Assembly: GCA_036444275.1 (NCBI GenBank)
Contig: JAZGAD010000060.1
Coordinates: 1-29,530, forward strand
Length of the DNA: 29,530 nucleotides
Origin: Candidatus Hydrothermarchaeales archaeon
GTDB lineage: Archaea > Hydrothermarchaeota > Hydrothermarchaeia > Hydrothermarchaeales > JAZGAD01
Reading direction: 5' to 3'
The position numbers were made by a program, and so were the translations under genes. A model generated the notes under the pieces. The model saw only the letters and a program-made list of their open reading frames with translations. It was not told the DNA's origin and ran no database searches. Below, piece after piece: positions 8,019-27,302 of this stretch. Positions within the stretch are counted from its first letter, which is position 1; every line of letters starts with the position of its first letter.

Positions 8019-8621
8019 CTACAATTCTTCGGTAATCCTAAAGTGGACCTTCGCTACTTCAGTTAGTATTTCCCTACCATGTTTCTCTATGAGCTTTCTT
8101 GCAGCTTCCTTTACATGGGCAGAGCCGCGAGGTAGTGGCATCTCCAGCCTCCTGGATAGGGCTTCGTGCTTCCTAAGAAACTCTGCTCTAGCCAAGATAG
8201 ATGCAGCTGCTACTGCCCTGTCGCTTTCACCGGAAGTTAAGAAAGAAATATCAACCCCCTCTATGTTTTTAAGTACATTTGCTTCATCCCCGAATTTATC
8301 TACTATTATCCGTTTTGGCGTGCATTGACCCAAAATTTCCTTTATAGCTTTAGCGTGCATCCATCCGAGGATCTGATTTAGATTATATACCCCTCCACTA
8401 TCCTTGTGGAGCTGGTTATACCTCTTAGGGGAAACACTCACTATGGAATAGATGCACCTCTTCTTTATCTCTTCCTCCAGCCTAGATATCTGGGTACTGC
8501 TCAGGCTTTTGGAATCCCTCACACCCATCTCTTTTAGAGTTTTTTCGTCGCATGCAACACAGGCAACCGCGATGTAACCAAAGTAGTCCCCTTTACCGGC
8601 TTCATCGCTTCCAGCTATCAT
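8019..8621 (-). CDS. rnhC: Ribonuclease HIII-type enzyme (catalytic domain only)
   Basis: GSDEAGKGDYFG, RDSK, YNQL..NLNQILGWMHAKAI, IVDKF, GES.AVAAASILAR, LPRGS, VAKVHF. This is a DEDE active site, typical of RNase HIII rather than DEDD RNase HII. Confidence 0.8.
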   Translation of the reverse strand: MIAGSDEAGKGDYFGYIAVACVACDEKTLKEMGVRDSKSLSSTQISRLEEEIKKRCIYSIVSVSPKRYNQLHKDSGGVYNLNQILGWMHAKAIKEILGQCTPKRIIVDKFGDEANVLKNIEGVDISFLTSGESDRAVAAASILARAEFLRKHEALSRRLEMPLPRGSAHVKEAARKLIEKHGREILTEVAKVHFRITEEL

Positions 8622-11249: not shown

Positions 11250-12431
11250 ATGTTATCTCGGACCGCACTTTCTGTTGAAGATGAGCAGCTTCCATTGTAT
11301 AGCGATATCAGGGAACTGGAGAGTATACGGCTCATATACCAATACAATGCCAGTGTTTGGGATGACTGGGCAAAACACCTTAGGAAGGGGGGAAAGGTAG
11401 TTGGGACCCTTCCTAATTCTCCTGCAGAACTCCTTAGAGCCGCGGGTGTCTTTTCCATTATATATAAGAGGAGGGAGGACCTCAACAGGACGATAATCAA
11501 GGGGGACCATGAGCTCAGCAAGTGGATATACCACTTTGGTATTGGCGAGTGTGTCTGCAGGTATGTAAGTGGAAGCGCTGGCTCACCTATTCTCGGTGCA
11601 TGCCCTGGCTATGACATGGTTATCACTGACTTCCTGCCTAAGTTGCCTGAATGGAATTCTCTTCTAAAGACCATTGGTAAGGAATGGGACTTTGAATTCA
11701 TAGAGCTTGAACCCGGTATGGATAGACGTGATAGGGAGAAGGCGATCTACGAGAGGCTTCTCCACCTTAAAGAGAGACTTGAAGGACTTGTGGAGAGAGA
11801 GATAACTAAGGAGGACATCGCTAAATCCATTGAAGCCACTAATGAGGTTACCCGCGTATTCCAGCGCATAGACGAATTGATAAAGAAGGAGCCACATCCA
11901 CTGAAGAGCTTCGACATCTACAACCTGAAGGTTATCTGCACTGACTACATTGGTGGTGACGTTGACCGGCTCCTGGGTGCATGCCATCTTCTCGCTGATG
12001 AATTGGAAGATAGAGTAAGGGATGGAGTTGGCTATCCAGGAAAAAAGGTGCTTCTCGCAGGTGGCTTCAGGAATGAGTTTTTACATGCAATAGACGGCAA
12101 CGGCGGCATAGTTACAGCTGGCTGGCCGTACCAGCGTTTCACAGCTCACCGCAAGCTCATAGACGGCTCAAACCTAGAGGCTCTCGCAAGGTGGTACTCT
12201 GGGCACTCGGGCCTTGGCAGCGCTGCTGAGAATGCTAGAGATTTCGCTGACCTTGTGAGGCGCTACGATGTAGACGCCGTTGTATACAACAGGCAATGCC
12301 CATTCGGCTCTCTAGAGGTCTACGATTCCCACGACGCGATAAAGGAAGCGGTGGACGTACCATTCTTGACGCTCGATGCCACCGAGGAAAAGGCTGACGA
12401 GAAGATCGGTGAGTTCCTCAGGAAAATCTAG
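11250..12431 (+). CDS. 2-hydroxyacyl-CoA dehydratase / benzoyl-CoA reductase subunit family (HGD-D fold), divergent
   Basis: KVVG..P.ELLRAAG, LEGLVEREITKEDIAKSIE..N, KKVLLAG, YDVDAVVY..QC, VPFLTLD. Several Cys could ligate an Fe-S cluster. Confidence 0.7.
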   Translation: MLSRTALSVEDEQLPLYSDIRELESIRLIYQYNASVWDDWAKHLRKGGKVVGTLPNSPAELLRAAGVFSIIYKRREDLNRTIIKGDHELSKWIYHFGIGECVCRYVSGSAGSPILGACPGYDMVITDFLPKLPEWNSLLKTIGKEWDFEFIELEPGMDRRDREKAIYERLLHLKERLEGLVEREITKEDIAKSIEATNEVTRVFQRIDELIKKEPHPLKSFDIYNLKVICTDYIGGDVDRLLGACHLLADELEDRVRDGVGYPGKKVLLAGGFRNEFLHAIDGNGGIVTAGWPYQRFTAHRKLIDGSNLEALARWYSGHSGLGSAAENARDFADLVRRYDVDAVVYNRQCPFGSLEVYDSHDAIKEAVDVPFLTLDATEEKADEKIGEFLRKI

Positions 12432-13433
12432 ATGCATGAGGCTTGGTGTTACACCAGTGATGGCGATTCTCTCAAGTGCGAACTCTGTATAATCAACTGC
12501 AAGATCAGGGAGGGGGACGTTGGCTTCTGCAAGACTAGAAAGAACATTGGTGGAAAGCTCTACAACACCATCTATGGGAAGCTCTCCAGTTTCAGTATCG
12601 ACTATGTAGAGAAGACGCCCCTCTATCACTTCCACCCTAATAGTAGATTCCTCACCCTGGGCAGTATCTCCTGCAATATGAAGTGCAAGTTCTGCCTTGC
12701 TTGGAGTATAACTCAGGTGCCGCCTGAAGAGGTCGATGTTACGGAGGTCAAGGTAAGCGGACTGATAAATGCTGCTAGAGCTCTGGAATGCAAGGGGATG
12801 GTCTACACTCATTCTGAGCCTGCCCTGAACCTGGAGTACTACGCAGAGATAATGAGGGAAGGGAAGAAGAAGGGTCTAACTAATGTCTTAGCCACCAATG
12901 GACTTGTATCTATAGAGGCATTCAAGAAGATAGCAGGAGACCTCGATGCAGTTGCCTTAACGATAAAGGGGGACGAGGATTTCTATCGCCAGGTGTGCGA
13001 CTTGAAGGTTAACGGCGTGCTGGAGCACCTAACAAGACTGATGAATGAGATAAAAGAGCAGGGTATCCATCTGGAGGTTGTGAGCCTCGTCATCCCGGGA
13101 TACGAGGGCCAAGCATCTGTAGCAGTAAACTTCGCCAAGAAGGCTGGTGTTCCCCTAATATTTCTCAGGTTCTTCCCCTGTTATGCCATGGATGATTTGC
13201 AGTCACCATCTGAGGAAATCTTGGAAACGGTCCTTAACAATGCCTATCGCAGTGGTGTGAAGTATGCCTACGTGGAGAACATCTTCTCGCATCCTGGAAA
13301 GAATACGTACTGCGAGGTCTGTAAGGCACCTCTGGTGAAGAGAGAGGGATACGGAGTCGTAGAATGGTCTTTGGTAGGTGGCAAGTGCATTCACTGCGGA
13401 GCTAGCATACCCATGGTTGGGGAAAGAGCTTAG
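12432..13433 (+). CDS. Radical SAM protein, AmmeMemoRadiSam / PflA-like
   Basis: N-terminal CxLCxxxC...GFCKTR, EKTPLYHFHP, CNMKCKFC (CxxxCxxC), SEP, TNG, C-terminal CxxC...CxxC. Confidence 0.85.
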   Translation: MHEAWCYTSDGDSLKCELCIINCKIREGDVGFCKTRKNIGGKLYNTIYGKLSSFSIDYVEKTPLYHFHPNSRFLTLGSISCNMKCKFCLAWSITQVPPEEVDVTEVKVSGLINAARALECKGMVYTHSEPALNLEYYAEIMREGKKKGLTNVLATNGLVSIEAFKKIAGDLDAVALTIKGDEDFYRQVCDLKVNGVLEHLTRLMNEIKEQGIHLEVVSLVIPGYEGQASVAVNFAKKAGVPLIFLRFFPCYAMDDLQSPSEEILETVLNNAYRSGVKYAYVENIFSHPGKNTYCEVCKAPLVKREGYGVVEWSLVGGKCIHCGASIPMVGERA

Positions 13434-16541: not shown

Positions 16542-17627
16542 TTGAGGCTTAATGTACCTACCAACTGGGATAATGCACTCATAGAAAACATAAGTTCTTT
16601 TCCAGTAGAGTGCATCTATGGGAAACTAGATGAAGATATAATCGGAGGGGGAAGGCCGACCTCTGCTCTTCCAAAGGTCACGAAAGAACATGCAGAAGAG
16701 CACATCAAGTTAGCGCATGCCAATGGTATTGTTTTTAACTATCTCTTGAATTCAGCCTGCTTGGGCAACCTGGAATACTCCGATGAATATAATCAGAAAA
16801 TATTGGAGCATCTGACCTGGATAGAGGGTATAGGTGCGGATTACGTCACTGTTTCTATACCATATCTCATTGAGGTAGTAAAAAAGAGATTCCCAAGCCT
16901 AAAGGTTGTGGCCTCTGTATTCTCCCACATAGAGTCTATACAGCAAGCGCAATTTTATCAGTCCCTAGGTGCAGATGAAATCGTTGTGGTGCAAAGCCAG
17001 AACAGAAACTTTGATTATCTAAGCAAGCTCTCGAAGGTAATAAAAAACTTACAAGTTATTGTCAACAACTGTTGTCTGCTGGGATGCCCATACCGCCGCT
17101 ATCACGCGAACATCAACTCACATGCATCACAGTCTCAACGCCAAGTTAAATCCATTCCAGTTGACTATCCTGTTTCAAGCTGCTGGAGGGCGAGACTCCA
17201 AGATCCTAGTGAGATCATCAAATCCCCATGGATTAGACCCGAGGATTTACACGTCTACGAAGAAATAGGCATCGACAAGTTCAAGCTATCAGGAAGGACA
17301 AAGACCACTGCGTGGATAACCACTGCTGTTAAGGCCTATGCTGAGAGGAGATATGAGGGGAATTTATTCGACATCCTAAGCCTGCCTCATGGAAAGGGGT
17401 CTATCAGCAGGCCAAAGAATATGCCCTTGGTGGATGTTGAGGTTGATAATAACATGCTAAACGATTTCCTGCCGTTCTTTATGCATCAGGATTGCAGCTC
17501 TACAGTATGCAGTCAATGCGGTTACTGCCCCGGCATAGCTGAGAAGGCAGTCAAGGTCAACCCTGAAGAGGTAAAACTAGCTATCGAGAGATACAACGAT
17601 GCATTGGAAGGCCTCATTAGGAGGTAG
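16542..17627 (+). CDS. U32 family Fe-S protein (putative O2-independent hydroxylase), subfamily distinct from UbiU/V
   Basis: FNYLLNSAC, NRN, NNCCLLGCPYR.YH, SSC, WIRPEDL..Y, FKLSGR (U32 KxxGR), C-terminal CxxxxCxxCxxC. Confidence 0.8.
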   Translation: MRLNVPTNWDNALIENISSFPVECIYGKLDEDIIGGGRPTSALPKVTKEHAEEHIKLAHANGIVFNYLLNSACLGNLEYSDEYNQKILEHLTWIEGIGADYVTVSIPYLIEVVKKRFPSLKVVASVFSHIESIQQAQFYQSLGADEIVVVQSQNRNFDYLSKLSKVIKNLQVIVNNCCLLGCPYRRYHANINSHASQSQRQVKSIPVDYPVSSCWRARLQDPSEIIKSPWIRPEDLHVYEEIGIDKFKLSGRTKTTAWITTAVKAYAERRYEGNLFDILSLPHGKGSISRPKNMPLVDVEVDNNMLNDFLPFFMHQDCSSTVCSQCGYCPGIAEKAVKVNPEEVKLAIERYNDALEGLIRR

Positions 17628-17631
17628 AATA

Positions 17632-18435
17632 TTGAGGCTTGGTTTTTTTACTAATGCATTCAGATTTTTTCCTCGGGATTATGCCCTTAAAAGCATAAGC
17701 GATCTCGGCTATGAGGGGATCAATCTCTGGGCAAAGGGGGATCATGTAACGCCATTTGATGGAGAGAAAAAGTGGCTGGCCATAAAGGAGGAAATAGAGT
17801 CATATGGCCTAGAGCTATATGCTGTTAGCGCACACCTCGACTTTGTCTCTCCAGATGCTGAGAAGAGGGAGAGGGAATACAAGAAATTCATGGGTGTCTT
17901 AGACCTTGCCCACACCCTTGGGATAGACCAGGTTCAAACAGCTTCAGGAGGCCTATATGAAGACTTCTCTTTCGAGAAACAAGGCGAGTACTTTGTCTCT
18001 ATGATGAATGAATTCGGCAAGGTAGCTGAAGATAAGGGGATCATCATAGGGCTTGAGCCAGAGCCTGAGAAGTGGATGAGCACGCCTGAGCAGACAATCG
18101 ATTTAATTAAGACTCTGCGCTATCCGGTGTTCAAGGCTGTCGTAGATCTGGGGCATGCCTTTGGGGTAAATGAAACACCCAAGAGTTATATCCACAAGTT
18201 CAAGGACTACCTGCTCAATGTCCATGTTGACGATGTAAACAAAGATGATTTCCCACACAGGCACCTTATACCTGGAGATGGGGACGTGGACTTTGTAGAT
18301 GTCTTTAAGACGCTGCGAGAAGTGGGATACAAGGATTGGCTTACCGTCGAGTTGAACAAACACAACGAGGACCCTGATACTGCAGCTCGTCTTGCAATGG
18401 AGTATATGAGTAGGTTTGAAGAACACTGGAAGTGA
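17632..18435 (+). CDS. Sugar-phosphate isomerase/epimerase (xylose isomerase-like / AP2 TIM barrel)
   Basis: GLEPEP, DLGH, HVDD, H.HLIPGDGDVDF, LTVEL metal motifs. TTG 17632 follows GGAGGT. Confidence 0.85.
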   Translation: MRLGFFTNAFRFFPRDYALKSISDLGYEGINLWAKGDHVTPFDGEKKWLAIKEEIESYGLELYAVSAHLDFVSPDAEKREREYKKFMGVLDLAHTLGIDQVQTASGGLYEDFSFEKQGEYFVSMMNEFGKVAEDKGIIIGLEPEPEKWMSTPEQTIDLIKTLRYPVFKAVVDLGHAFGVNETPKSYIHKFKDYLLNVHVDDVNKDDFPHRHLIPGDGDVDFVDVFKTLREVGYKDWLTVELNKHNEDPDTAARLAMEYMSRFEEHWK

Positions 18436-20057
18436 AGGGTATATTCACACTACTAGGTGGAGAGATGGTTGATCAGAAGAAACCAAGGAGTATCTATCTA
18501 AGAGCTGCATGGTATGGTGAAACCCCTGATTTTAATCCATATAACGAGATTTCAAGGAACTTAAAACAAGCTGTTTCCATGGGGAAGATGTCGCATCCAG
18601 ACAATCTGGAATCCCTTATGAAATTACTATATGAAACCAACCGTAGATATGGTGTCTTAACGCAGGAAGTAAAAGAGAAGATTGACTCCATAGCAAGTGG
18701 TGTAGCGATAACAGCCCACCAGCCTATTTATCTCGGCGGCCCGTCTTTAATCTTGAATAAGATGGCGCTTGCTTCGGAGGTCTCTAAGATCTCAGAGCTA
18801 TCTCCTTTATTCTTCCTCGCCGACTTTGATGGGGTTCACAAAGAGATTACTCATACACACCTCCCCAGTTTAAGTCCAGCAGGCATTGCACTCTTACTTC
18901 CAAGGGATATCATAAAGGATTATGAAGGCTGTCCAGTCTATACTCTGCCTTTACCTAGTGAGGCACATTTAACGGATACATTGGAAAGAATCAGACAGAA
19001 CTATGGAGAGACAATCAAAAAGGCATTTTCATCTCCAGCTGAGAAGAGGTTGTATATCGAACGCTTGGAAGAAGCTTTGACCGTGGTTAGGACACAATAT
19101 TATGCTTCTAAAAACTTCAGCGAATGGACCATGCGTATCCTAGCTAATATCGCGAACATTACTGGTGAACTCAACATCATGTTTCTTGAATCGTCTTCTA
19201 GGGAATTCAGGAGACTCCTCCAAGGAGGTTTCGAGTATCTAATGGGGGATAAAAACCTTGATACCTTTATTAAAACCATAAACAGGGTCCACGATCAGCT
19301 TAAGGAAAACAATATCACTCCAACTCTGAGAAAGCGGGACAAGAAATATGTTCCGTTCTTTTATGAGTGCCAGAGCCAGGGATGTAACCGGAGGAGGGTC
19401 TTACTGGAGCGTGAGAATACCATATTAAAGGGAAGATGCAAGAAATGTGGTACTGCATATGGGTTTTCAAAGAATGAACTCTCAGATATAGTGGAGGATA
19501 TAAGCCCCCGTATCGACTCAAGACTGCTCGTTTCCTCCTTTGCTATCCCCCTGTCTGTGCAGATCACAGGTGGTGGCGAGACCGACTACATGGCGCAGGT
19601 GCTTCCTGCTATGCGTTCCATAAAGGTTGATCCCCCCACCACCTTGCTCTATAGTAGGATATACTATAACAATGTAATAAGAGCCCATCTAGAGGTAAAA
19701 ATAAAGCAGTTACTTGAAAAATATGGGTTGCCAGAGTCAGAGATATATACTTGCTTAGGGAGGTACATGAATAATGCAACAAGGGAGGAGGCTATGATTC
19801 CCCTAACCCTAGCTATAGAACAGGAATACAGAACACTTAAAAAACTGGAGGAGATCGCTAAAGAACGCGACGTATCCCTATACATCTCATCTGCCCATGG
19901 AAGCTATTCCAAAGAGAAGGTAGGGCAGGAGATATCATGGAATTGGATTGATCTAGCGGTATCCTCAGGCGTATCCGATCTCATAAACATATATACACGG
20001 TTTTATAATGCAGAGACAATACCGGGTGCATGCTTCTTTGCAAACACGTGCAGGTGA
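18432..20057 (+). CDS. bshC: BshC-like (bacillithiol cysteine-adding enzyme family) ligase
   Basis: TAHQPIYLGGP...NK (cf. BshC GQQ.G..GP...K), PLFFLADFD..HKEI (cf. PVFW...DHD..EI), ISPR...R, GGGETDYMAQV (cf. GGPGE.AY.AQ). About 540 aa and clustered with bshB1. Confidence 0.65.
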   Translation: MKGIFTLLGGEMVDQKKPRSIYLRAAWYGETPDFNPYNEISRNLKQAVSMGKMSHPDNLESLMKLLYETNRRYGVLTQEVKEKIDSIASGVAITAHQPIYLGGPSLILNKMALASEVSKISELSPLFFLADFDGVHKEITHTHLPSLSPAGIALLLPRDIIKDYEGCPVYTLPLPSEAHLTDTLERIRQNYGETIKKAFSSPAEKRLYIERLEEALTVVRTQYYASKNFSEWTMRILANIANITGELNIMFLESSSREFRRLLQGGFEYLMGDKNLDTFIKTINRVHDQLKENNITPTLRKRDKKYVPFFYECQSQGCNRRRVLLERENTILKGRCKKCGTAYGFSKNELSDIVEDISPRIDSRLLVSSFAIPLSVQITGGGETDYMAQVLPAMRSIKVDPPTTLLYSRIYYNNVIRAHLEVKIKQLLEKYGLPESEIYTCLGRYMNNATREEAMIPLTLAIEQEYRTLKKLEEIAKERDVSLYISSAHGSYSKEKVGQEISWNWIDLAVSSGVSDLINIYTRFYNAETIPGACFFANTCR

Positions 20058-20061
20058 TGAG

Positions 20062-20907
20062 ATGAATACGCTCTTGGTTATTCCTGTTTACCAGGAAGAA
20101 GAGAATATCTCGAAAGTCCTCTATGATATTGAAGAATCGAGAGCGAATGGCATACCTTTTGATATACTAATCATCGATGATGGATCAACAGATTCTACTC
20201 CAGTTATACTTGATAGGCTCCAGAAGGACATTACATTTGATATCCTCATGCACAGAGAGAATGCTGGATATGGAAATGCCCTAAAATCAGGGTTCGATTC
20301 AGCGATTCAAGGGGGCTACGATACTATTATCACAATGGATGCTGATGAACAGCATGATCCAGATTTCCTGAAATCTTTTTTTGCAACAAAAGGCGCGGAT
20401 ATCCTCAGCGGCTCTAGGTATCAAGACATAGTCTTAGGGACAAATAGCATGCCCCCTGACCGTTTTTTGATTAACATGATAATGACGACTATAGTTAATC
20501 ACTTGACTGCCTATGATCTAACAGATTCCTTCTGCGGTATGAAGGCCTATAACGTGGATGCCTTAAAGAAATTAGATCTTACGGGGCTTGCAGAAGGATA
20601 TGAAATGCCTCTCCAGCTTCTTTTTCAAGCTCGCTTTAATAACCTCTCCATCATGGAGATACCGGTACCCTTAATATACAAGACACATGAGGTACTGGCA
20701 CCAGCTCCAAAACGCTTGGAGGCATACATTAACACAGTAAGAGATGAGGTTGTAAGAAGTAAGAAACAGCATATAGTAGAACTATTAGAGAAGGCACTTG
20801 AAAGAAGGGACGGCTTGGTGAATATCGCAGTAGAAACACATGCAATGCTAGAGGACATAATAGGTGCTCAACTGCCGTGTCCTCGATACCTTAGAGGTGG
20901 ACTATGA
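20062..20907 (+). CDS. Glycosyltransferase family 2 (DPM1/ArnC-like)
   Basis: IPVYQEEENI, IDDGSTDST, HRENAGYG.A...GF, TMDADEQH, GSRY, TDSFCGMKAY, EIPV. ATG 20062 follows GGTGA. Confidence 0.9.
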   Translation: MNTLLVIPVYQEEENISKVLYDIEESRANGIPFDILIIDDGSTDSTPVILDRLQKDITFDILMHRENAGYGNALKSGFDSAIQGGYDTIITMDADEQHDPDFLKSFFATKGADILSGSRYQDIVLGTNSMPPDRFLINMIMTTIVNHLTAYDLTDSFCGMKAYNVDALKKLDLTGLAEGYEMPLQLLFQARFNNLSIMEIPVPLIYKTHEVLAPAPKRLEAYINTVRDEVVRSKKQHIVELLEKALERRDGLVNIAVETHAMLEDIIGAQLPCPRYLRGGL

Positions 20908-21590
20908 AATTGGATGTCTTGGTTGTGGGAGCGCATCCAGATGATGCAGAACTAGGGGCTGGGGGTACGATTGCAAAGCTGGAAAAACAAGGACGGAGGG
21001 TAGGAATCCTTGACCTATCTGATGGTGAACCGACGCCTCATGGAACGCCTGAGATAAGGAGGAAGGAAGCAGAAGAAGCAGCAAAAATCTTAGGGGTTGA
21101 TGTCAGGGAGATACTTGGATTAGAGAATAGGAAGATCATCGATAGCATTGAGGCAAGAAAAGAGATAGCAAATATCATAAGGAAGTATAAGCCTGAGGTG
21201 ATTATCACACATCCAAAGGATGAGAGCCACCCAGATCATATTGTAGCCTACAACCTGGTATTTGCATCCAGTTTCTATGCCAGATTAACGAAGTGGCCGC
21301 AGGCAAGGAAACCATGGGAGGTTAAAAGGATATTCCACTTCCCGGGGGGGCACCAAAGGGTAAACAGGAAGGTCTCGTTTATAGTTGATATCAGTGATTT
21401 CATCGAACAGAAGATAAAGGCACTAGAATGCTATAAATCGCAGCTCATAGAGAACGTGAAGAACCGTGAGCTTCTGGAGATAATCCCGGCTGCGGCAAAG
21501 TATTATGGTTCAATGATAGGCAGGAGCTATGGAGAAGCGTTCATCTGCGAGGAAGAGATAGGGGTAGAAGACCTACTGGATATCATATAG
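20904..21590 (+). CDS. bshB1: N-acetylglucosaminyl deacetylase BshB1 (PIG-L family)
   Basis: GAHPDDAELG.GGTIAK, ILDLSDGEPTPHGT.E.R..EA..AA.ILGV, HPDH, VDISDF..K..AL.CYKSQ, YGEAF. Confidence 0.85.
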   Translation: MKLDVLVVGAHPDDAELGAGGTIAKLEKQGRRVGILDLSDGEPTPHGTPEIRRKEAEEAAKILGVDVREILGLENRKIIDSIEARKEIANIIRKYKPEVIITHPKDESHPDHIVAYNLVFASSFYARLTKWPQARKPWEVKRIFHFPGGHQRVNRKVSFIVDISDFIEQKIKALECYKSQLIENVKNRELLEIIPAAAKYYGSMIGRSYGEAFICEEEIGVEDLLDII

Positions 21591-21599
21591 GGAATTACC

Positions 21600-22619
21600 A
21601 TGGTCGAGTTAGTTGTTCCCACTCCGAATCTAGAGGTATTAAAAGCTGCATTGGATAGTGGGGCAGATTCGGTATATGTGCCGATAACAAAGAAAGTATC
21701 GATACGCTTTGGATCCAGTTTTTTCTCACTTGGTGAGATGGAGAAGGCAGTAGGATATGCCCATGATCTAGGAAAAAAAGCCTATGTGGTTGTCAATGCC
21801 CATGTAAGGGATAGGGGTCTTGAAGATTTTCAGAGGACTGTAGAGTCTATCTATAGTGCAGAAGCAGACGGCGTAGTGGTGAGCAGCTTCGGTGTTATAG
21901 ACTGGATAAACAAGCATTATCCAATAAAGATCATCGCCTCAGGTGTTGCATCTGCTATCTCCCCAGAGGATGCATTGTTCTTAAAATCCCTCGGTGTTAC
22001 GAGGGTGATAATCCCTCGCCTTCGATCCCTGCAGTCGATAAAAGAATACAAGGAGAAAACCAACATGGAGGTTGAAGTATACGTAAGTGGCTTCATCTGC
22101 AGTGCATGGGATGGAAAACGCTGTTTCCTGCCTTCTCTGCTCTATGATGTGGGCACAGAATCTGGTTTGTGCATCCCGAAGGATGTTAAGCGTGTTTCAG
22201 GACTTTATTTAGCTGGTGATCATCCAATACGTTCTGTTAGGCTTGGAACAGATAGCTTTTCTACCAGGCACGGAAGCGTAGGCATAGAGGGCCAGGGTTT
22301 AATCACCCCATGTATCGGCGATTATATAGTAAAATGCGGTGATGATTCCATTAAAGCACATCTCATGGAATTCGAAGTACAGTGTGACCTAGCTGCGATT
22401 CCTTATCTGATCAAAAACAACGTGGACAGCCTGAAGGTTGTCGCAGAGGTAAAATCCCTGGATTATATTAAGAAGATGGTTGAGGTTTGGAGGAAGGCTA
22501 TAGATGCATACGAGGCTTCTCCTGAGTCATGGAAAGTGGAAGAAGGGTGGATAAGGGCGCTGCAGGCCGCATATAACCTGCCGATTAGGCTTGATTCATA
22601 TTTCAAGGGGGGATGCTGA
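21600..22619 (+). CDS. ubiU: U32 family Fe-S protein, UbiU-like
   Basis: ELVVP..NL..LKAALDSGADSVY, GVTRVIIPR, EVEVYV.G. Cys spacing C-X7-C-X15-C-X46-C, with the last Cys in TPCIGDY (cf. E. coli UbiU C-X6-C-X16-C-X38-C, PTLCKGRY). Confidence 0.72.
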   Translation: MVELVVPTPNLEVLKAALDSGADSVYVPITKKVSIRFGSSFFSLGEMEKAVGYAHDLGKKAYVVVNAHVRDRGLEDFQRTVESIYSAEADGVVVSSFGVIDWINKHYPIKIIASGVASAISPEDALFLKSLGVTRVIIPRLRSLQSIKEYKEKTNMEVEVYVSGFICSAWDGKRCFLPSLLYDVGTESGLCIPKDVKRVSGLYLAGDHPIRSVRLGTDSFSTRHGSVGIEGQGLITPCIGDYIVKCGDDSIKAHLMEFEVQCDLAAIPYLIKNNVDSLKVVAEVKSLDYIKKMVEVWRKAIDAYEASPESWKVEEGWIRALQAAYNLPIRLDSYFKGGC

Positions 22620-23485
22620 TGGAGATAACAGTAACCGCATATACTTATCCAGAAGTTGAAAAATGGGTTAAAAGTGGAGCAGACAGCATAAGGTTTGGTG
22701 AGCCTCACTGCTACCTAAAAGCACTGCGAGACTGGGATGAAAAAAAAATTAGAAAGGCATGTGCACTAATAGAATCGTCGGGTAAAAAAGCCCAGTTGCA
22801 GTTGCTGGTTGCACCATCTTCAAGGGAGGAAATCGAGTATACGAGAAACCTATGCAATCTTGCCTCATCTAATGGTATCGACCTAGTGCTAGGCTCCCTA
22901 GGCATGCTTAAGATAACTAATAGCTGTGTGGCTGGTAGCTATATCAAGGCTTATAACCGCCTCGACCTAGAGGTTCTGAGTAGACATGGAGTTAGGATAG
23001 TATCCATATCACCTGACCTGGCAAAGGAGGAGATAGAGGGGTTGATAAGAAATGCACCCTCAATGTTGTTTGAGTACCAGATTCATGGTCCAGTAAGCCT
23101 CATGACGAGTTGGAAGTGCTTCCTAAGGCAGATGTGCCCTGCTGAAGGGAAAGGGAACTGCAGCTATGTGTGCACAGGTTATATACGCATGCACAGCCTT
23201 AGTGGAGAAGAACTCTTTGATGTAAATGGCAACTCGCTTGCAACTTCTAGGGATCTATGCATGCTTCCTCATCTAGGGGAGCTTTTTGATATGGGGGTCT
23301 CTATCGGACTGATAGAAACGAGGAATAGGGAATACGATAATTGCATTATAGATGTCTACAAAGAAGCAGTTCAAGACCCTGGTAATTTTGAATACCTCAA
23401 GAGACTGCGTGGAAATTTCTTGGACGGTTGGTACCATGGGAAAGAGGGGAATAGCTTTTGCTTAGGGAGGAAAGTAGACGAATAG
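22613..23485 (+). CDS. ubiV: U32 family Fe-S protein, UbiV-like
   Basis: N-terminal FGEPHC (cf. UbiV LGEAVC), HG.V.L..S..C-X13-C-X3-C, F.VNG, C-terminal DGWYHG (cf. NGYW). Overlaps the UbiU-like gene. Confidence 0.75.
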   Translation: MLMEITVTAYTYPEVEKWVKSGADSIRFGEPHCYLKALRDWDEKKIRKACALIESSGKKAQLQLLVAPSSREEIEYTRNLCNLASSNGIDLVLGSLGMLKITNSCVAGSYIKAYNRLDLEVLSRHGVRIVSISPDLAKEEIEGLIRNAPSMLFEYQIHGPVSLMTSWKCFLRQMCPAEGKGNCSYVCTGYIRMHSLSGEELFDVNGNSLATSRDLCMLPHLGELFDMGVSIGLIETRNREYDNCIIDVYKEAVQDPGNFEYLKRLRGNFLDGWYHGKEGNSFCLGRKVDE

Positions 23486-24064
23486 TATATCCCAACATAG
23501 ATGCGTCGCTATTGCTGGAAGTAAGCCTGCCTCTGAGTATATCAAGCCCCATGCCAATGCTAATATGAAATCGATGAAACCAGGCATCAGGCCTACCCCT
23601 GATCCCCTTATAGCGCTCAGCAATGAAGTGACGAGGATGGCATGCCTTACATTGAAATACTTGCAAAGAGTCTCCTGAACATAGCCCCGGTAGAACAACT
23701 CCATAGATACTACGACTAATATCAAAGCTGGAAAAGATATTAATAGCGAAATCCTCTGCCAAGGTTCAACGAAGTAACTCCACTTGTCAGTGCCTATAGG
23801 GATTTGACTCCCTGCAACAAAAGAGAACCCTAGTCTCATAGCAAGATAGAATAAACACATCGAGAAAATCCCTACGCCCAGCCACTTCCAATGGCCATGC
23901 TTTACCCAATGATACTCTCTAATGCTTGCTATCCCTAATACAGCTAACCCTGCGAAGTATATTATATTAGAATATGGACGGGGACTAAGAGGTGTATATA
24001 AAAGATAGAAGAAGAATATCACAGGGAGGTTTATGATTACAATCCTAGCTAATTTATTATCCAT
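23462..24064 (-). CDS. CPBP/Abi (type II CAAX protease) family membrane protein with degenerate motifs
   Basis: Many TM segments; ELFYRGYVQ and GLLPAIATHLCWD are present, but the EE and FxxxH motifs are altered. Confidence 0.7.
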   Translation of the reverse strand: MDNKLARIVIINLPVIFFFYLLYTPLSPRPYSNIIYFAGLAVLGIASIREYHWVKHGHWKWLGVGIFSMCLFYLAMRLGFSFVAGSQIPIGTDKWSYFVEPWQRISLLISFPALILVVVSMELFYRGYVQETLCKYFNVRHAILVTSLLSAIRGSGVGLMPGFIDFILALAWGLIYSEAGLLPAIATHLCWDILFVYFPP

Positions 24065-24073
24065 TTTTGGTCC

Positions 24074-24931
24074 TTAAGTGTATAGATCTATAAAGGTAAA
24101 GAGGAATACCAAGGAGCTTATGGCAACATTTACACTGAAGGTCTTCCTCCAGACATCTGTAAACTCTGATAGTATATGATATTGATAAATCTGAAGTACC
24201 CCCATAATGAGGATACCTGATAGGTAAGCTGTACCTAATTCTAGGATATAGTACAATGAGAGGAATAAGAGCAAGGAAGCGACAGCAAATCCCTTAGCTA
24301 TCCAGAAACTTTTGTCTGGACCAAGCCAGGCAGGGATCGAATGTAGTTTCTGAGTACGATAAAACTCCATGTCGCGTATATCCTGGATGATATCAAAACC
24401 TGTCATCCAAAATGCAACTGCTAGGGATAGCACAATGGCTGGAAATTCTATTCTGCCGCTCACAGCTATCCATCCTCCAAATGGGGAAAGACCCAAGATT
24501 ACACCTAACAAGATGTGCAACCCCGAAGTAAAGCGCTTGGTATAGGGGTAAATGCATATGAGTAGGATTACGAAGGGGGATAGCTTGAAGCATAACGGAT
24601 TTAATTTGTATGCAGCGAATGCTAGCAGAGCAAAGGATATTAAAGCAAAAACAAGTACTTCGAGAGGGTCGAGTACCCCCGTAGGAATGAACCGATCTTT
24701 TGTCCTTAGATTTAGCGCATCTATCTCACGGTCAATAAACCTATTTATCGCCATTCCTCCGCTTCTAGCACTTGCCAATGCCAGAAGTATGAACATAACC
24801 TGGTGTTTTGTTGGTAATCCCCCTGCGGCCAATACTGCACCCATTAGAGCAAAGGGAAGCACCAGTAGAATACGCTCGAATTTGGTCATCTCAAAGAGCG
24901 TCTTGATCTTCACATGTTGTATTCTTTCCAT
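24074..24931 (-). CDS. ubiA: UbiA family aromatic polyprenyltransferase (MqnP / 4-HB prenyltransferase-like)
   Basis: LPFA, ARS..MA.NRFIDREIDA.N.RT..R.IP.G, YPYTKRFT, GGWIAV, W..GFDII, multiple TM helices. Confidence 0.88.
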   Translation of the reverse strand: MERIQHVKIKTLFEMTKFERILLVLPFALMGAVLAAGGLPTKHQVMFILLALASARSGGMAINRFIDREIDALNLRTKDRFIPTGVLDPLEVLVFALISFALLAFAAYKLNPLCFKLSPFVILLICIYPYTKRFTSGLHILLGVILGLSPFGGWIAVSGRIEFPAIVLSLAVAFWMTGFDIIQDIRDMEFYRTQKLHSIPAWLGPDKSFWIAKGFAVASLLLFLSLYYILELGTAYLSGILIMGVLQIYQYHILSEFTDVWRKTFSVNVAISSLVFLFTFIDLYT

Positions 24932-26358
24932 CTCCTATCCACTAGATCGACAACATCCGGGCTCATATTTAATGCCTCTGGCCATTCTCTTTCATGTCCC
25001 TCGTCCCTTCCCTTCATAGTTGCATCTATACCTATCTTTGATCCTAGATTCGGCAGTGGAGCCGCGTGATCAAGGGTATCAACAGGCGCTCTGTCTATCA
25101 CAATAATATCCCTTTTGGGGTCTATCCTGGTTGAAACAGCCCACGTTACCTCACCTAAGTCCTGGATGTTTACATCTTCATCCACAACAACTATGCACTT
25201 GGTAGAGGAAAGCTGCCCCAAGCCCCATAATGCAAACATAACCTTTTTTGCCTGCCCAGGATACCTCTTCTTAATGGATACTATGCAGAGGTTGTGGACA
25301 GCGCTCTCTATTGGCAGATTTATATCTCTTATCTCTGGAAGCTGGAACCTTATTAGAGGGAGGAACATCCTTTCTATCGCTTTTCCCATGTATGAATCTT
25401 CCTTAGGGGGTCTACCAGTCAGCGTTGCAGGATATATCGGCTTCTCCCTGTGAGTTATACACGTTACATGGAAGACCGGAAAGAGGTCTGGTAGGGAATA
25501 ATAACCGGTGTGGTCTCCGAAAGGACCTTCACTTCTCCGTTCATTTGGATCAATATAACCCTCTAAAACGATTTCGGCATTGGCAGGCACCTCTAGATCG
25601 ACGGTCTCGCACTTCACTAACTCTACAGGTTTCTTCCTCAAAATGCCTGCGAATACCATCTCATCAAAACCGTCTGGCAGTGGAGCCGGTGCAGATAGCA
25701 TGGTTGCAGGGTCACCGCCTAATGCTACTGCAACCTCCAAGGGCCTTCCCAGTTCCTCAGCCTTACGATAGTGCGTCGCCCCATGCTTTTGAATATGCCA
25801 GTGCATACCAGTGGTTTTTGCATCGAATACCTGCATGCGGTACATCCCAACGTTTCTCTCTCCAGTCTCTGGATCCTTAGTGAAGACTAGAGGGAGTGTT
25901 ATGAACCGCCCACCATCCTTAGGCCAGAACTTTGGTATTGGAAATTTACTAAGGTCTACCTCATCACCTTTAAGAATAATATCCTTGCAGGGCCCACTCT
26001 TCACAACCTTTGGAAAAATAGACAAGACATCCCTTAGTTTAGAGACACCCTTTATCTTACCCACTAAACCGGATGGTATCTCTGGTTTAATCAACTCGAC
26101 AATGCCTTTGCCTATGTTCTCTAAATCTTCTACGTCTAATGCTACTTTTATTCGTTGTATTGAGCCAAAGATGTTCGCTAGGATAGGTATATCAAAACCT
26201 TTTACATTTTCAAAGAGCACTGCCGGTCCATTACTTTTAACCAACCTATCCAAGATCTCTGTAACCTCAAGTTCTGGATTAACCTCTGTTTTGATCCTCC
26301 GTAACTCTCCCTTATTCTCAAGGAATTTAATAAAATCCCTTAAGTCACGATATGCCAC
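24910..26358 (-). CDS. ubiD: UbiD family prFMN-dependent (de)carboxylase (MqnL / menaquinone decarboxylase-like)
   Basis: DLRDFI..LE..GEL, WPKDGGRFITLP, RNVGMYRMQ, GMHW..QK.G, EGPFGDHTGYYS, KRYPGQAKKVM, GSKIGIDAT. GTG start with GGAGG. Confidence 0.93.
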   Translation of the reverse strand: MAYRDLRDFIKFLENKGELRRIKTEVNPELEVTEILDRLVKSNGPAVLFENVKGFDIPILANIFGSIQRIKVALDVEDLENIGKGIVELIKPEIPSGLVGKIKGVSKLRDVLSIFPKVVKSGPCKDIILKGDEVDLSKFPIPKFWPKDGGRFITLPLVFTKDPETGERNVGMYRMQVFDAKTTGMHWHIQKHGATHYRKAEELGRPLEVAVALGGDPATMLSAPAPLPDGFDEMVFAGILRKKPVELVKCETVDLEVPANAEIVLEGYIDPNERRSEGPFGDHTGYYSLPDLFPVFHVTCITHREKPIYPATLTGRPPKEDSYMGKAIERMFLPLIRFQLPEIRDINLPIESAVHNLCIVSIKKRYPGQAKKVMFALWGLGQLSSTKCIVVVDEDVNIQDLGEVTWAVSTRIDPKRDIIVIDRAPVDTLDHAAPLPNLGSKIGIDATMKGRDEGHEREWPEALNMSPDVVDLVDRRWKEYNM

Positions 26359-26736: not shown

Positions 26737-26762
26737 AAACCCGCCGATGGGATGATAAATTG

Positions 26763-27302
26763 ATGGAAATAGATTTTGAGTCCACCCGGCAAAAGTATAG
26801 ACCGGAGAGAATCAAATTCCTTCTTATTGCAGAAGCACCACCCAAGGTTGAATCCAAGCGGTTTTTCTACTTTGAAGATGTCCAAAGGGGCGATAGTTTG
26901 TTCTGGGAGACCATGAAAGTATTATATCCCGACGATTGTTCGAATATAAAAACCGTTCGCCAGCGAAAGCGCGAATTCTTGGAGAGATTTCAAAAAGACG
27001 GATTCTACTTGATAGATGCCACAGATGCACCAATAGAAGATACTCGCCCAGGAAAAAAGGAGAAGCAAATTAAAAAATCCCTTCCGTCCCTCATAGAAAA
27101 AGTTAGAAGTCTTGCCTCGGAAGATACAAATATCATTCTTATTTCATCGACAGTCTATAATGTTGTTGCTACTAGCTTGAAATCAAAAGGCTTCAACGTT
27201 ATAAACGAAGATATGATACCTTTCCCGGGGTCGGGTGGACAGGCAAAGTTTAGAAAAAAAATGTCTGCATTACTCAAAAAGTATGGGCGCCGAAACAAAT
27301 AA
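26763..27302 (+). CDS. Uracil-DNA glycosylase-fold protein (atypical)
   Basis: YRPERIKFLLIAEAPP...FFYF, F...GFYLIDA...P, IPFPGSG. Resembles UDG-superfamily motifs A/B but lacks HPS. Confidence 0.6.
   Translation: MEIDFESTRQKYRPERIKFLLIAEAPPKVESKRFFYFEDVQRGDSLFWETMKVLYPDDCSNIKTVRQRKREFLERFQKDGFYLIDATDAPIEDTRPGKKEKQIKKSLPSLIEKVRSLASEDTNIILISSTVYNVVATSLKSKGFNVINEDMIPFPGSGGQAKFRKKMSALLKKYGRRNK

Follow-up and report, generated by a model that had tools for sequence, protein, structure and literature searches.

The U32 proteins are, to our knowledge, the only enzymes that hydroxylate aromatic rings without O2 by using an organic oxygen donor. In lipid synthesis they are represented by UbiU and UbiV, which together with UbiT provide the O2-independent hydroxylases of the ubiquinone pathway in Pseudomonadota (PMC6747719) and which have also been reported in the Desulfobacterota class GWC2-55-46 (PMC13386864); in the available text of these two papers, lipid-related U32 hydroxylation is described for ubiquinone only, in Pseudomonadota and that one Desulfobacterota class. 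Prephenate-dependent hydroxylation has been proposed for the whole U32 family (PMC10990095), to which TrhP (tRNA ho5U) and RlhA (rRNA ho5C) of E. coli also belong, and homologs of UbiA, UbiD/X and UbiE build a benzoquinone in the methyl-plastoquinone pathway of Nitrospirota, a pathway found in aerobes (PMC11874023). The present work concerns a pair of adjacent U32 genes which stand beside genes for a UbiA-family prenyltransferase and a UbiD-family decarboxylase in a 29,530-nucleotide stretch of archaeal DNA (contig JAZGAD010000060.1 of a Candidatus Hydrothermarchaeales archaeon; "the window" below means the whole of this stretch), and a nine-gene bacterial module whose parts the archaeon shares.

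We think it fairly probable that the pair and the module constitute an O2-independent, nine-part pathway to an aromatic lipid that is prenylated, hydroxylated and C-methylated, in other words to a quinone or quinol distinct from menaquinone. This reading follows from the combination of a prenyltransferase, a decarboxylase of the type that uses prenylated flavin mononucleotide (prFMN), a C-methyltransferase, the U32 pair and a third Fe-S U32 protein, a set whose logic is that of anaerobic benzoquinone synthesis (PMC6747719, PMC10990095). The archaeal genome (G000) is a 1.49-Mb metagenome-assembled genome (MAG) in 61 contigs, 81% complete; its domain is archaeal, since it encodes ribosomal protein L19e, a family which among 14 controls matched only the 4 archaeal ones.

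A pair of UbiU-like and UbiV-like proteins

The two genes overlap by 7 nucleotides, with the U-like gene first:

21600..22619, + strand: P0001, UbiU-like U32 Fe-S protein, 339 aa; above the cut-off of Pfam Peptidase_U32, best NCBIfam match UbiU
22613..23485, + strand: P0002, UbiV-like U32 Fe-S protein, 290 aa, predicted partner of P0001; above the cut-off of Pfam Peptidase_U32, best NCBIfam match UbiV

P0001 matches the NCBIfam UbiU model (NF047963) over its full length with 146.4 bits, against an equivalog cut-off of 440, and P0002 likewise matches the UbiV model (NF047965) over its full length with 70.7 bits, against a cut-off of 275. The iron-sulfur ligand residues of UbiU and UbiV (PMC6747719) are recovered in both proteins. 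In P0001, cysteines 167, 175, 191 and 238 (CX7CX15CX46C, with the motif ITPCIGDY) fall in the columns of E. coli UbiU C169/C176/C193/C232, and these columns agree in all eight aligned sequences. P0002 carries FGEPHC (C33), C169, C183-X3-C187 and LDGWYHG near the C-terminus, and in a four-sequence alignment its C33/C169/C183/C187 are invariant and aligned to E. coli UbiV C39/C180/C193/C197. An automatic scan of eight V-type rows finds two ligand columns complete and one in seven of eight rows (missing in the genome G043); it does not flag the column of C183, where spacing differs between the rows, and where the bacterial V-like proteins have a cysteine when inspected by eye. The V-after-U order is kept in all five other loci that have downstream DNA.

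The predicted complex of P0001 and P0002 supports the formation of a heterodimer. In each of three runs the model has an interface score ipSAE of 0.89, whereas the highest among three controls is 0.00; of 80 solved complexes 58 attain the mark used, and of 110 mismatched pairs 2 do, a calibration which holds roughly here, where our own alignments were used. The runs share at least 92% of their contacts, and the predicted local distance difference test score of the partner is at least 84. No complex of similar sequence has been solved: in the PDB, P0001 matches 5d88 alone (21.6 bits) and P0002 matches nothing.

The phylogenetic position of the pair was examined in an unrooted tree of 51 U32 rows, from which Arch_G027_301 and five long proteins were left out and to which five module copies were added. 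The U-like family forms a group of 15 rows with support 100/99, and a split supported at 99/97 separates this family, the protein P0017 and UbiU (19 rows, three of them UbiU) from all the TrhP-like, RlhA-like, Firmicute-pair and other archaeal U32 rows. A second tree, with nine further rows removed and six V-type proteins added, again places the family, P0017 and UbiU in one clade (16 rows; Shimodaira-Hasegawa-like approximate likelihood-ratio test, SH-aLRT, 95), while five V-like proteins group together (98) and join E. coli UbiV (92), with long-branch warnings. The U-like family stands beside the three-row UbiU clade and not inside it. An earlier note, made from the letters of the sequence, had proposed a UbiU/UbiV-like pair in this order, and the cysteine ligands, the gene order, the predicted heterodimer and the tree position all bear this out; the long spacer before the fourth cysteine, which the note had counted as part of the UbiU architecture, does not characterise the family, because it measures 9-11 residues in the bacterial U-like members.

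The pair therefore resembles UbiU-UbiV in consisting of adjacent short U32 genes in U-then-V order with the same four cysteine ligands each, in its predicted heterodimer, in its context of UbiA-, UbiD- and UbiE-type genes, and in having UbiU-UbiV as its nearest named clade. It differs in that its proteins score far below the NCBIfam cut-offs and lie outside the UbiU clade proper, in that UbiT and a UbiG-type gene were not found in the genome and the modules respectively, in the additional presence of a third U32 protein with a C-terminal four-cysteine motif, a TIM-barrel enzyme, a GFO/IDH/MocA oxidoreductase and a CPBP protein, and in its hosts, which are the archaeon and unclassified uncultured bacteria. 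Close relatives are rare. An exhaustive search of 1.84 billion representatives with P0001 gave 7870 matches, among which only a few short proteins come near, at no more than 39% identity. Scans of genome contigs for close relatives of P0001 and P0012 found none, or only Firmicute U32 pairs at 22-26% identity, and a metagenome scan with generic patterns gave 80 loci, none of them above 36% identity and none from the U-like family. In a word-index search the closest match to P0001 was a 31% relative only, and that to P0002 only a 90% strain copy; a copy of P0002 at 90% (P0160) lies on a public 2.3-kb contig.

A different explanation would have the pair hydroxylate RNA as TrhP or RlhA do, or fill some other housekeeping role among U32 enzymes, its adjacency to UbiA and UbiD being due to chance. 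TrhP and RlhA share the U32 fold and a likely 4Fe-4S cluster with the pair, the N-terminal half of P0001, and only that half, matches the TrhP model with 114.6 bits (cut-off 534), and Firmicute U32 pairs of 309 aa and about 400-430 aa, which we take to serve tRNA hydroxylation, are found in four loci (L029, L030, L033, L034). In one genome (G041), moreover, the U-V pair stands alone among the housekeeping genes hpf, ptsN, HPr kinase and rapZ. The same genome carries a module-type UbiA, UbiD, TIM-GFO and CPBP-MTase (methyltransferase) elsewhere, however, and in three genomes the pair lies inside a same-strand module. The grouping with TrhP or RlhA that the earlier note had named as the outcome that would count against it does not appear, since the P0001 family falls outside both tree groups, as the 99/97 split shows; TrhP and RlhA are also longer, have their fourth cysteine after CX3/4 where the window pair has it further downstream, and have no lipid genes in their context. 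Of the 38 phylum genomes (G000 and 37 relatives, the phylum sample used throughout), the family was found in only one, unlike a housekeeping RNA modifier. We therefore regard this explanation as very improbable. Two other U32 matches in the phylum search are frames of 418 and 813 aa, and the one placed in the tree falls among the RlhA-like rows.

A nine-gene module in bacteria and its parts in the archaeon

Bacterial relatives were found by a genome scan with an alignment of six family members, which yielded four MAG loci, and a phylum search of 20 genomes added a fifth genome. The module consists of nine genes on one strand, which encode UbiD, UbiA, a TIM-barrel protein, a GFO/IDH/MocA oxidoreductase (GFO), the U-like and V-like proteins, a 361-aa U32 protein, a UbiE/COQ5 methyltransferase and a CPBP protein, and three bacterial loci carry it in the same order (L232 5323-15074, L222 5732-14208, and L220 304-8318, where the contig ends at the methyltransferase gene). 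Three further genomes (G041, G043, G045) hold its parts as sub-clusters: U-V, TIM-GFO, 361-aa U32-MTase-CPBP, and CPBP-MTase-UbiA. In two of the loci (L222 1825-5159, L232 1268-4647) the module is preceded by conserved genes for a PAS sensor kinase and a sigma-54-dependent response regulator, 69% and 78% identical respectively, which hints at regulated expression of the module.

The archaeon has all nine module parts, seven in the window and two on contig C2 of the same genome. Those not already listed are the following, together with a TIM fragment on C2:

16542..17627, + strand: third U32 protein, 361 aa, first gene of the operon; Pfam U32 49.9 bits, over residues 86-149 only
17599..18435, + strand: xylose-isomerase-like TIM-barrel enzyme, 278 aa, module part; PF01261 145 bits
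23462..24064, - strand: CPBP/Rce1-like membrane protein, 200 aa, module part; PF02517 35.5 bits
24074..24931, - strand: UbiA-family prenyltransferase, 285 aa, of the module type; TIGR01475 243.8 bits, above the cut-off of 180.8
24910..26358, - strand: UbiD-family decarboxylase, 482 aa, the phylum's own MqnL type; TIGR03701 634.1 bits, above the cut-off of 495.9
contig C2, 1710-2654: GFO/IDH/MocA oxidoreductase, module part
contig C2, 2645-2932: TIM-barrel fragment, 95 aa, 45% identical to residues 146-219 of the window TIM protein
contig C2, 2948-3544: UbiE-like methyltransferase, 198 aa, module part

The identity between the bacterial modules and the window is 55-56% for UbiD, 42-43% for UbiA, 49-59% for the TIM protein, 28-35% for the U-like, 25-29% for the V-like and 51-54% for the third U32 protein, and 37-42% for the CPBP protein, which is the last gene of the bacterial modules. 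The earlier note's suggestion that the pair is tied to UbiA and UbiD is thus supported, all of them being parts of one same-strand bacterial module. Its observation that the window has no methyltransferase, UbiX or UbiT gene needs qualification for the genome, in which a UbiE-like methyltransferase (contig C2) and UbiX (contig C13) are present and UbiT is still not found. The methyl-plastoquinone pathway is comparable in its UbiA, UbiD/X and UbiE homologs and in having a gap of the same type at its C1 hydroxylase; its MpqC, MpqQ and MpqB are not seen in the module, and no U32 protein is reported in the available part of its description (PMC11874023).

The third U32 protein is placed in U32 clusters by the Atlas. 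It has eight invariant cysteines, whose columns are 8 of 8: C73, C178, C182 and C214, and a C-terminal CX4CX2CX2C motif (C318/323/326/329). Its counterpart is the gene directly after the V-like gene in the bacterial modules, and in two other genomes (G048, G049) its relatives, at 35-40% identity, have no other module gene nearby. The TIM gene lies in the bacterial modules always directly before the GFO gene. Its best solved relatives, all weak, are MJ1311, IolI, IolE, tagatose 3-epimerase and AsbF. Adjacent genes for GFO/IDH/MocA and xylose-isomerase-like TIM folds recall the IolG/IolE, DgpA-type and AsbF systems, which we take to serve inositol catabolism, C-glycoside oxidation and dehydroshikimate dehydration respectively, but the similarity is weak (at most 64 bits). 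A search for the TIM protein at E <= 1e-50 gave no match among 401 genomes of the phylum of a Bathyarchaeia MAG, 400 of the phylum of a Heimdall MAG and 5 further entries, and is uninformative because it had no positive control. The TIM fragment on C2 looks like a decayed second TIM copy, and the module genes there (L224 24-3544) adjoin two multihaem cytochrome c genes. Contig C13 (L019 968-3579) also holds a second UbiD, of 417 aa and not of the MqnL type, near UbiX with a small open reading frame (ORF) between them; this UbiD and UbiX could, we assume, be an archaeal mevalonate-pathway decarboxylase pair.

The forward-strand genes form a tightly packed run of seven between 16542 and 23485, with intergenic gaps of -29, -4, -50, -4, +9 and -7 nucleotides, in the order third U32, TIM barrel, BshC-like, glycosyltransferase family 2 (GT2), PIG-L/BshB1, P0001 and P0002. 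The CPBP, UbiA and UbiD genes on the reverse strand converge on this operon tail to tail rather than diverging from it, and the 3' ends of the P0002 and CPBP genes overlap by 24 nucleotides. The three genes in the middle of the operon are:

18432..20057, + strand: BshC-like protein, 541 aa, insert; PF10079 50 bits, TIGR03998 55.4 bits against a cut-off of 265.8
20008..20907, + strand: GT2 glycosyltransferase, 299 aa, insert; PF00535 83 bits, weak matches to polyprenyl-phosphate sugar transferases
20904..21590, + strand: PIG-L/BshB1-type deacetylase, 228 aa, insert; TIGR04001 (BshB1) 209.4 bits, above the cut-off of 182.5

When these are compared with the bacillithiol set, the BshB1 protein lies above its cut-off and the BshC-like protein below, and the glycosyltransferase belongs to GT2 rather than to the GT4 of BshA. 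Since they are packed on one strand with the pair, at gaps of -29 to +9 nucleotides, it might be supposed that the pair acts with the co-transcribed BshC-like, GT2 and BshB proteins on a thiol or glycolipid product. The distribution of the genes refutes this. BshC-like homologs (28-37% identical) are common in Bathyarchaeia and Asgard MAGs, and among the 80 archaeal and bacterial loci kept of 91, with a BshC-like ORF in 72 (by blast) and a PIG-L gene in 58, not one carries a module gene (U32, TIM, UbiA or UbiD); within the phylum sample the BshC-like gene is found in G000 only. Conversely, no bacterial module holds BshC-like, GT2 or BshB genes. Because the three genes occupy the place that GFO has in the bacterial modules, just as an insertion would, and because none of the 80 loci has module genes, they are read as a separate thiol-type unit inserted in the module, and joint action with the pair is hardly credible. 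BshC-like and PIG-L pairs are usually separated by a gene of about 1.1 kb, and their occurrence in Bathyarchaeia and Asgard archaea suggests an archaeal bacillithiol-like thiol pathway. This insert, like the third U32 and TIM-barrel genes upstream of the pair, goes beyond the earlier reading of the locus.

Menaquinone genes and the proposed pathway

The main competing explanation makes the module a route to menaquinone, either a substitute for the usual one or its completion, in which the TIM, GFO and three U32 proteins replace early futalosine steps or process ribose-bearing intermediates, while UbiA, UbiD and UbiE act as MqnP, MqnL and MenG. In its favour is the window UbiD, which passes the MqnL model, nests in the MqnL clade of the phylum and has orthologs of 52-73% identity in 23 of the 37 phylum relatives; PF02621, the family of MqnA and MqnD, is likewise found in 23 of 37. 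One of these relatives (G005) encodes at a single locus MqnC-PF02621-MqnE-PF02621-UbiA-UbiD-MenG, with MqnC, MqnE, MqnL and MenG above their cut-offs, and the window UbiD is 67% identical to the ortholog in this full mqn cluster. The UbiA gene overlaps the UbiD gene by 22 nucleotides in the window as in G005; the differences are that the window UbiA is of the module type, that MqnA/C/D/E and MenG were not found in its genome, and that three U32 genes stand alongside. Two further relatives, neither of which has the U32 pair, carry an MqnL-type UbiD and no PF02621 match (G007, which is 97% complete and also has an MqnP-type UbiA, and G020), so that MqnL/MqnP without MqnA/MqnD occurs elsewhere in the phylum.

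In G000 itself, no MqnA, MqnC, MqnD, MqnE or MenG was found in the 81% complete assembly by PF02621, by family search or by tblastn with the G005 proteins, which returned CofH and CofG only. An MqnC-like match on contig C14 was rejected as MqnC, since it is CofH and lies beside CofG and Mtd. No early mqn genes were found in G043 either, which also carries the module, and this accords with a completing role of the module in menaquinone synthesis. The same may be said of the bacterial module UbiDs, which are sister to the UbiDs of bacterial futalosine clusters, of the presence of one PF02621 gene (MqnA/MqnD family) in those clusters (L236, L237, L238), whose UbiD is unusually long, as against usually two in the relatives of the archaeon, and of the known use of GFO-plus-TIM pairs for oxidative sugar removal (DgpA, IolE and IolI matches).

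Other evidence speaks for two different products. Three genomes (G042, G044, G061) have, besides the module, a separate cluster of UbiD (605-611 aa), UbiA, MqnE and PF02621, with MqnC beside it in G042 and G044 (the stretch fetched from G061 ends before that position), and the module is therefore a second pathway there. The module UbiAs form a clade of their own, apart from archaeal and bacterial MqnP. The window UbiA scores below the cut-offs of all three MqnP models (233.1 against 430, 183 against 420, 181.8 against 375), shows the module state in three of three signature columns, and groups with the bacterial module UbiAs and the UbiA of G041 (ultrafast bootstrap, UFBoot, 94; SH-aLRT 98); a chimeric window UbiA was ruled out, there being no switch in sliding-window identity. 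Menaquinone, moreover, needs no ring hydroxylation past 1,4-dihydroxy-6-naphthoate, and we know of no module enzyme family that builds a naphthalene ring. On balance a menaquinone route appears unlikely. The earlier note had held that its view would fail if UbiD and UbiA were simply the genome's only mqnL and mqnP of a complete futalosine pathway: this applies to UbiD, which is the phylum's MqnL ortholog, and does not apply to the module-type UbiA or to the early genes, which were not found.

A number of observations nevertheless weigh against the pathway to a non-menaquinone quinone. The window UbiD nests in the phylum MqnL clade, as sister of G024 (SH-aLRT 96). The approximately unbiased (AU) test rejects a clade of the window UbiA with phylum MqnP (p 0.004), but for a group which was named only after a quick tree had been seen; the UFBoot of 94 for the module-type grouping is moderate, and the UbiA is 42-43% identical to module UbiAs as against 37-43% to phylum MqnP. 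All the mqn genes of G005 lie in one locus, so that a single assembly gap in G000 could hide them, and menaquinone might still be made in the ordinary way in this incomplete genome if an mqn cluster had escaped assembly; the single PF02621 gene of the bacterial futalosine clusters means that the module might complete an altered menaquinone route there. The U-like and V-like proteins are only 25-35% identical to the bacterial module copies, and the U-V pair stands apart from other module parts in G041 and G043. The methyltransferase on C2 is short (198 aa, compared with 252-263 aa) and 27-31% identical to the bacterial ones, and C2 is tied to the window by binning alone. The U32 tree without V-type rows is unrooted, and it is the V-type rows that bring the long-branch warnings. 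Finally, UbiT/SCP2 (PF02036) was not found in the 81% complete genome, and none of the three complete module copies has a UbiG-type O-methyltransferase among its nine genes. In view of these last two results the label "ubiquinone-type" that the earlier note had given the pathway is unsupported or too narrow, and nothing points to ubiquinone itself as the product.

The pathway to a prenylated, hydroxylated and C-methylated lipid can be laid out in five steps, each of which, like the product, we infer; the gene content, synteny, phylogeny and cysteine ligands are observed, and the heterodimer is modelled. An aromatic acid would first be supplied or trimmed, and here the TIM and GFO proteins may act on a precursor resembling a sugar or cyclitol, combining its oxidation with an elimination or dehydration. 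Prenylation by the module-type UbiA would follow, and then decarboxylation by UbiD, with prFMN provided by the UbiX of C13. In the fourth step the U/V heterodimer, each subunit with a putative 4Fe-4S cluster, would serve as the O2-independent ring hydroxylase, with prephenate as the oxygen donor by analogy with E. coli, and the third U32 protein, with its extra C-terminal four-cysteine motif, might carry out another hydroxylation or relay electrons. The fifth step would be C-methylation by the UbiE-type enzyme. The module parts would have been acquired from outside the phylum of the archaeon and set beside its native mqnL; horizontal acquisition, as the earlier note had considered, is supported by the phylum sample, where a single genome of 38 was found to have the U-like family, and the same holds for the BshC-like gene and for the module-type genes. 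We offer more tentatively the idea that the module has replaced menaquinone synthesis in the archaeon, the native prenyltransferase having been swapped beside the retained MqnL, the early futalosine genes and MenG having been lost, and a new membrane quinone being made via the three U32 proteins.

Genomic setting and significance

The arrangement of the window is supported by independent DNA. A contig from another public run (X4 record 31) spans the convergent junction at 23417-23803, so that the placing of the U and V genes next to CPBP-UbiA-UbiD is not a one-off assembly join. Four runs, from four studies, contain relatives of the whole 9.8-kb stretch, with a likeness of at least 85% and 29-30 of 30 bins covered, and no RNA data set is listed as carrying this stretch. 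A 3.2-kb contig of G000, C25 (L020 2-3186), carries the third U32, TIM-barrel and BshC-like genes again, with 86-92% protein identity to window 16542-20057, and is probably a co-binned sister strain and not a true duplication. Elsewhere in the window, positions 8019-8621 (- strand) encode a 200-aa RNase H, of which the C-terminal catalytic part only matches the RNase HIII model (159.4 bits, cut-off 161.2), an unusual type for an archaeon. At 11250-13433 a double-cubane-cluster-like protein is followed by a radical SAM enzyme of the AmmeMemoRadiSam type, which just misses its cut-off (218.7 bits against 220), and a 180-aa ORF at 26760-27302, upstream of an acetyl-CoA synthetase gene, is matched by neither Pfam nor NCBIfam.

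Searches of the open literature on U32 proteins, UbiU/UbiV and quinone or menaquinone gene clusters, which did not cover supplements, brought up no paper that describes the module. Archaeal quinone biosynthesis is poorly mapped, and the overviews of archaea are over a decade old according to a 2026 survey (PMC13386864); the nine-gene set is a concrete and clonable object with which this can be approached. The module points to a new quinone in anoxic subsurface and marine microbes. If the proposed pathway is correct, a module with three U32 proteins, a UbiA clade of its own and a sugar-type oxidoreductase/TIM pair would widen the lipid chemistry of the U32 family. One archaeal lineage seems to have gained the module while losing the usual menaquinone genes, and if the module has indeed replaced menaquinone synthesis there, U32 proteins would for the first time be seen to hydroxylate a ring anaerobically for lipid synthesis in an archaeon, and the lineage would be a live case of a switch of quinone type by gene transfer between domains.

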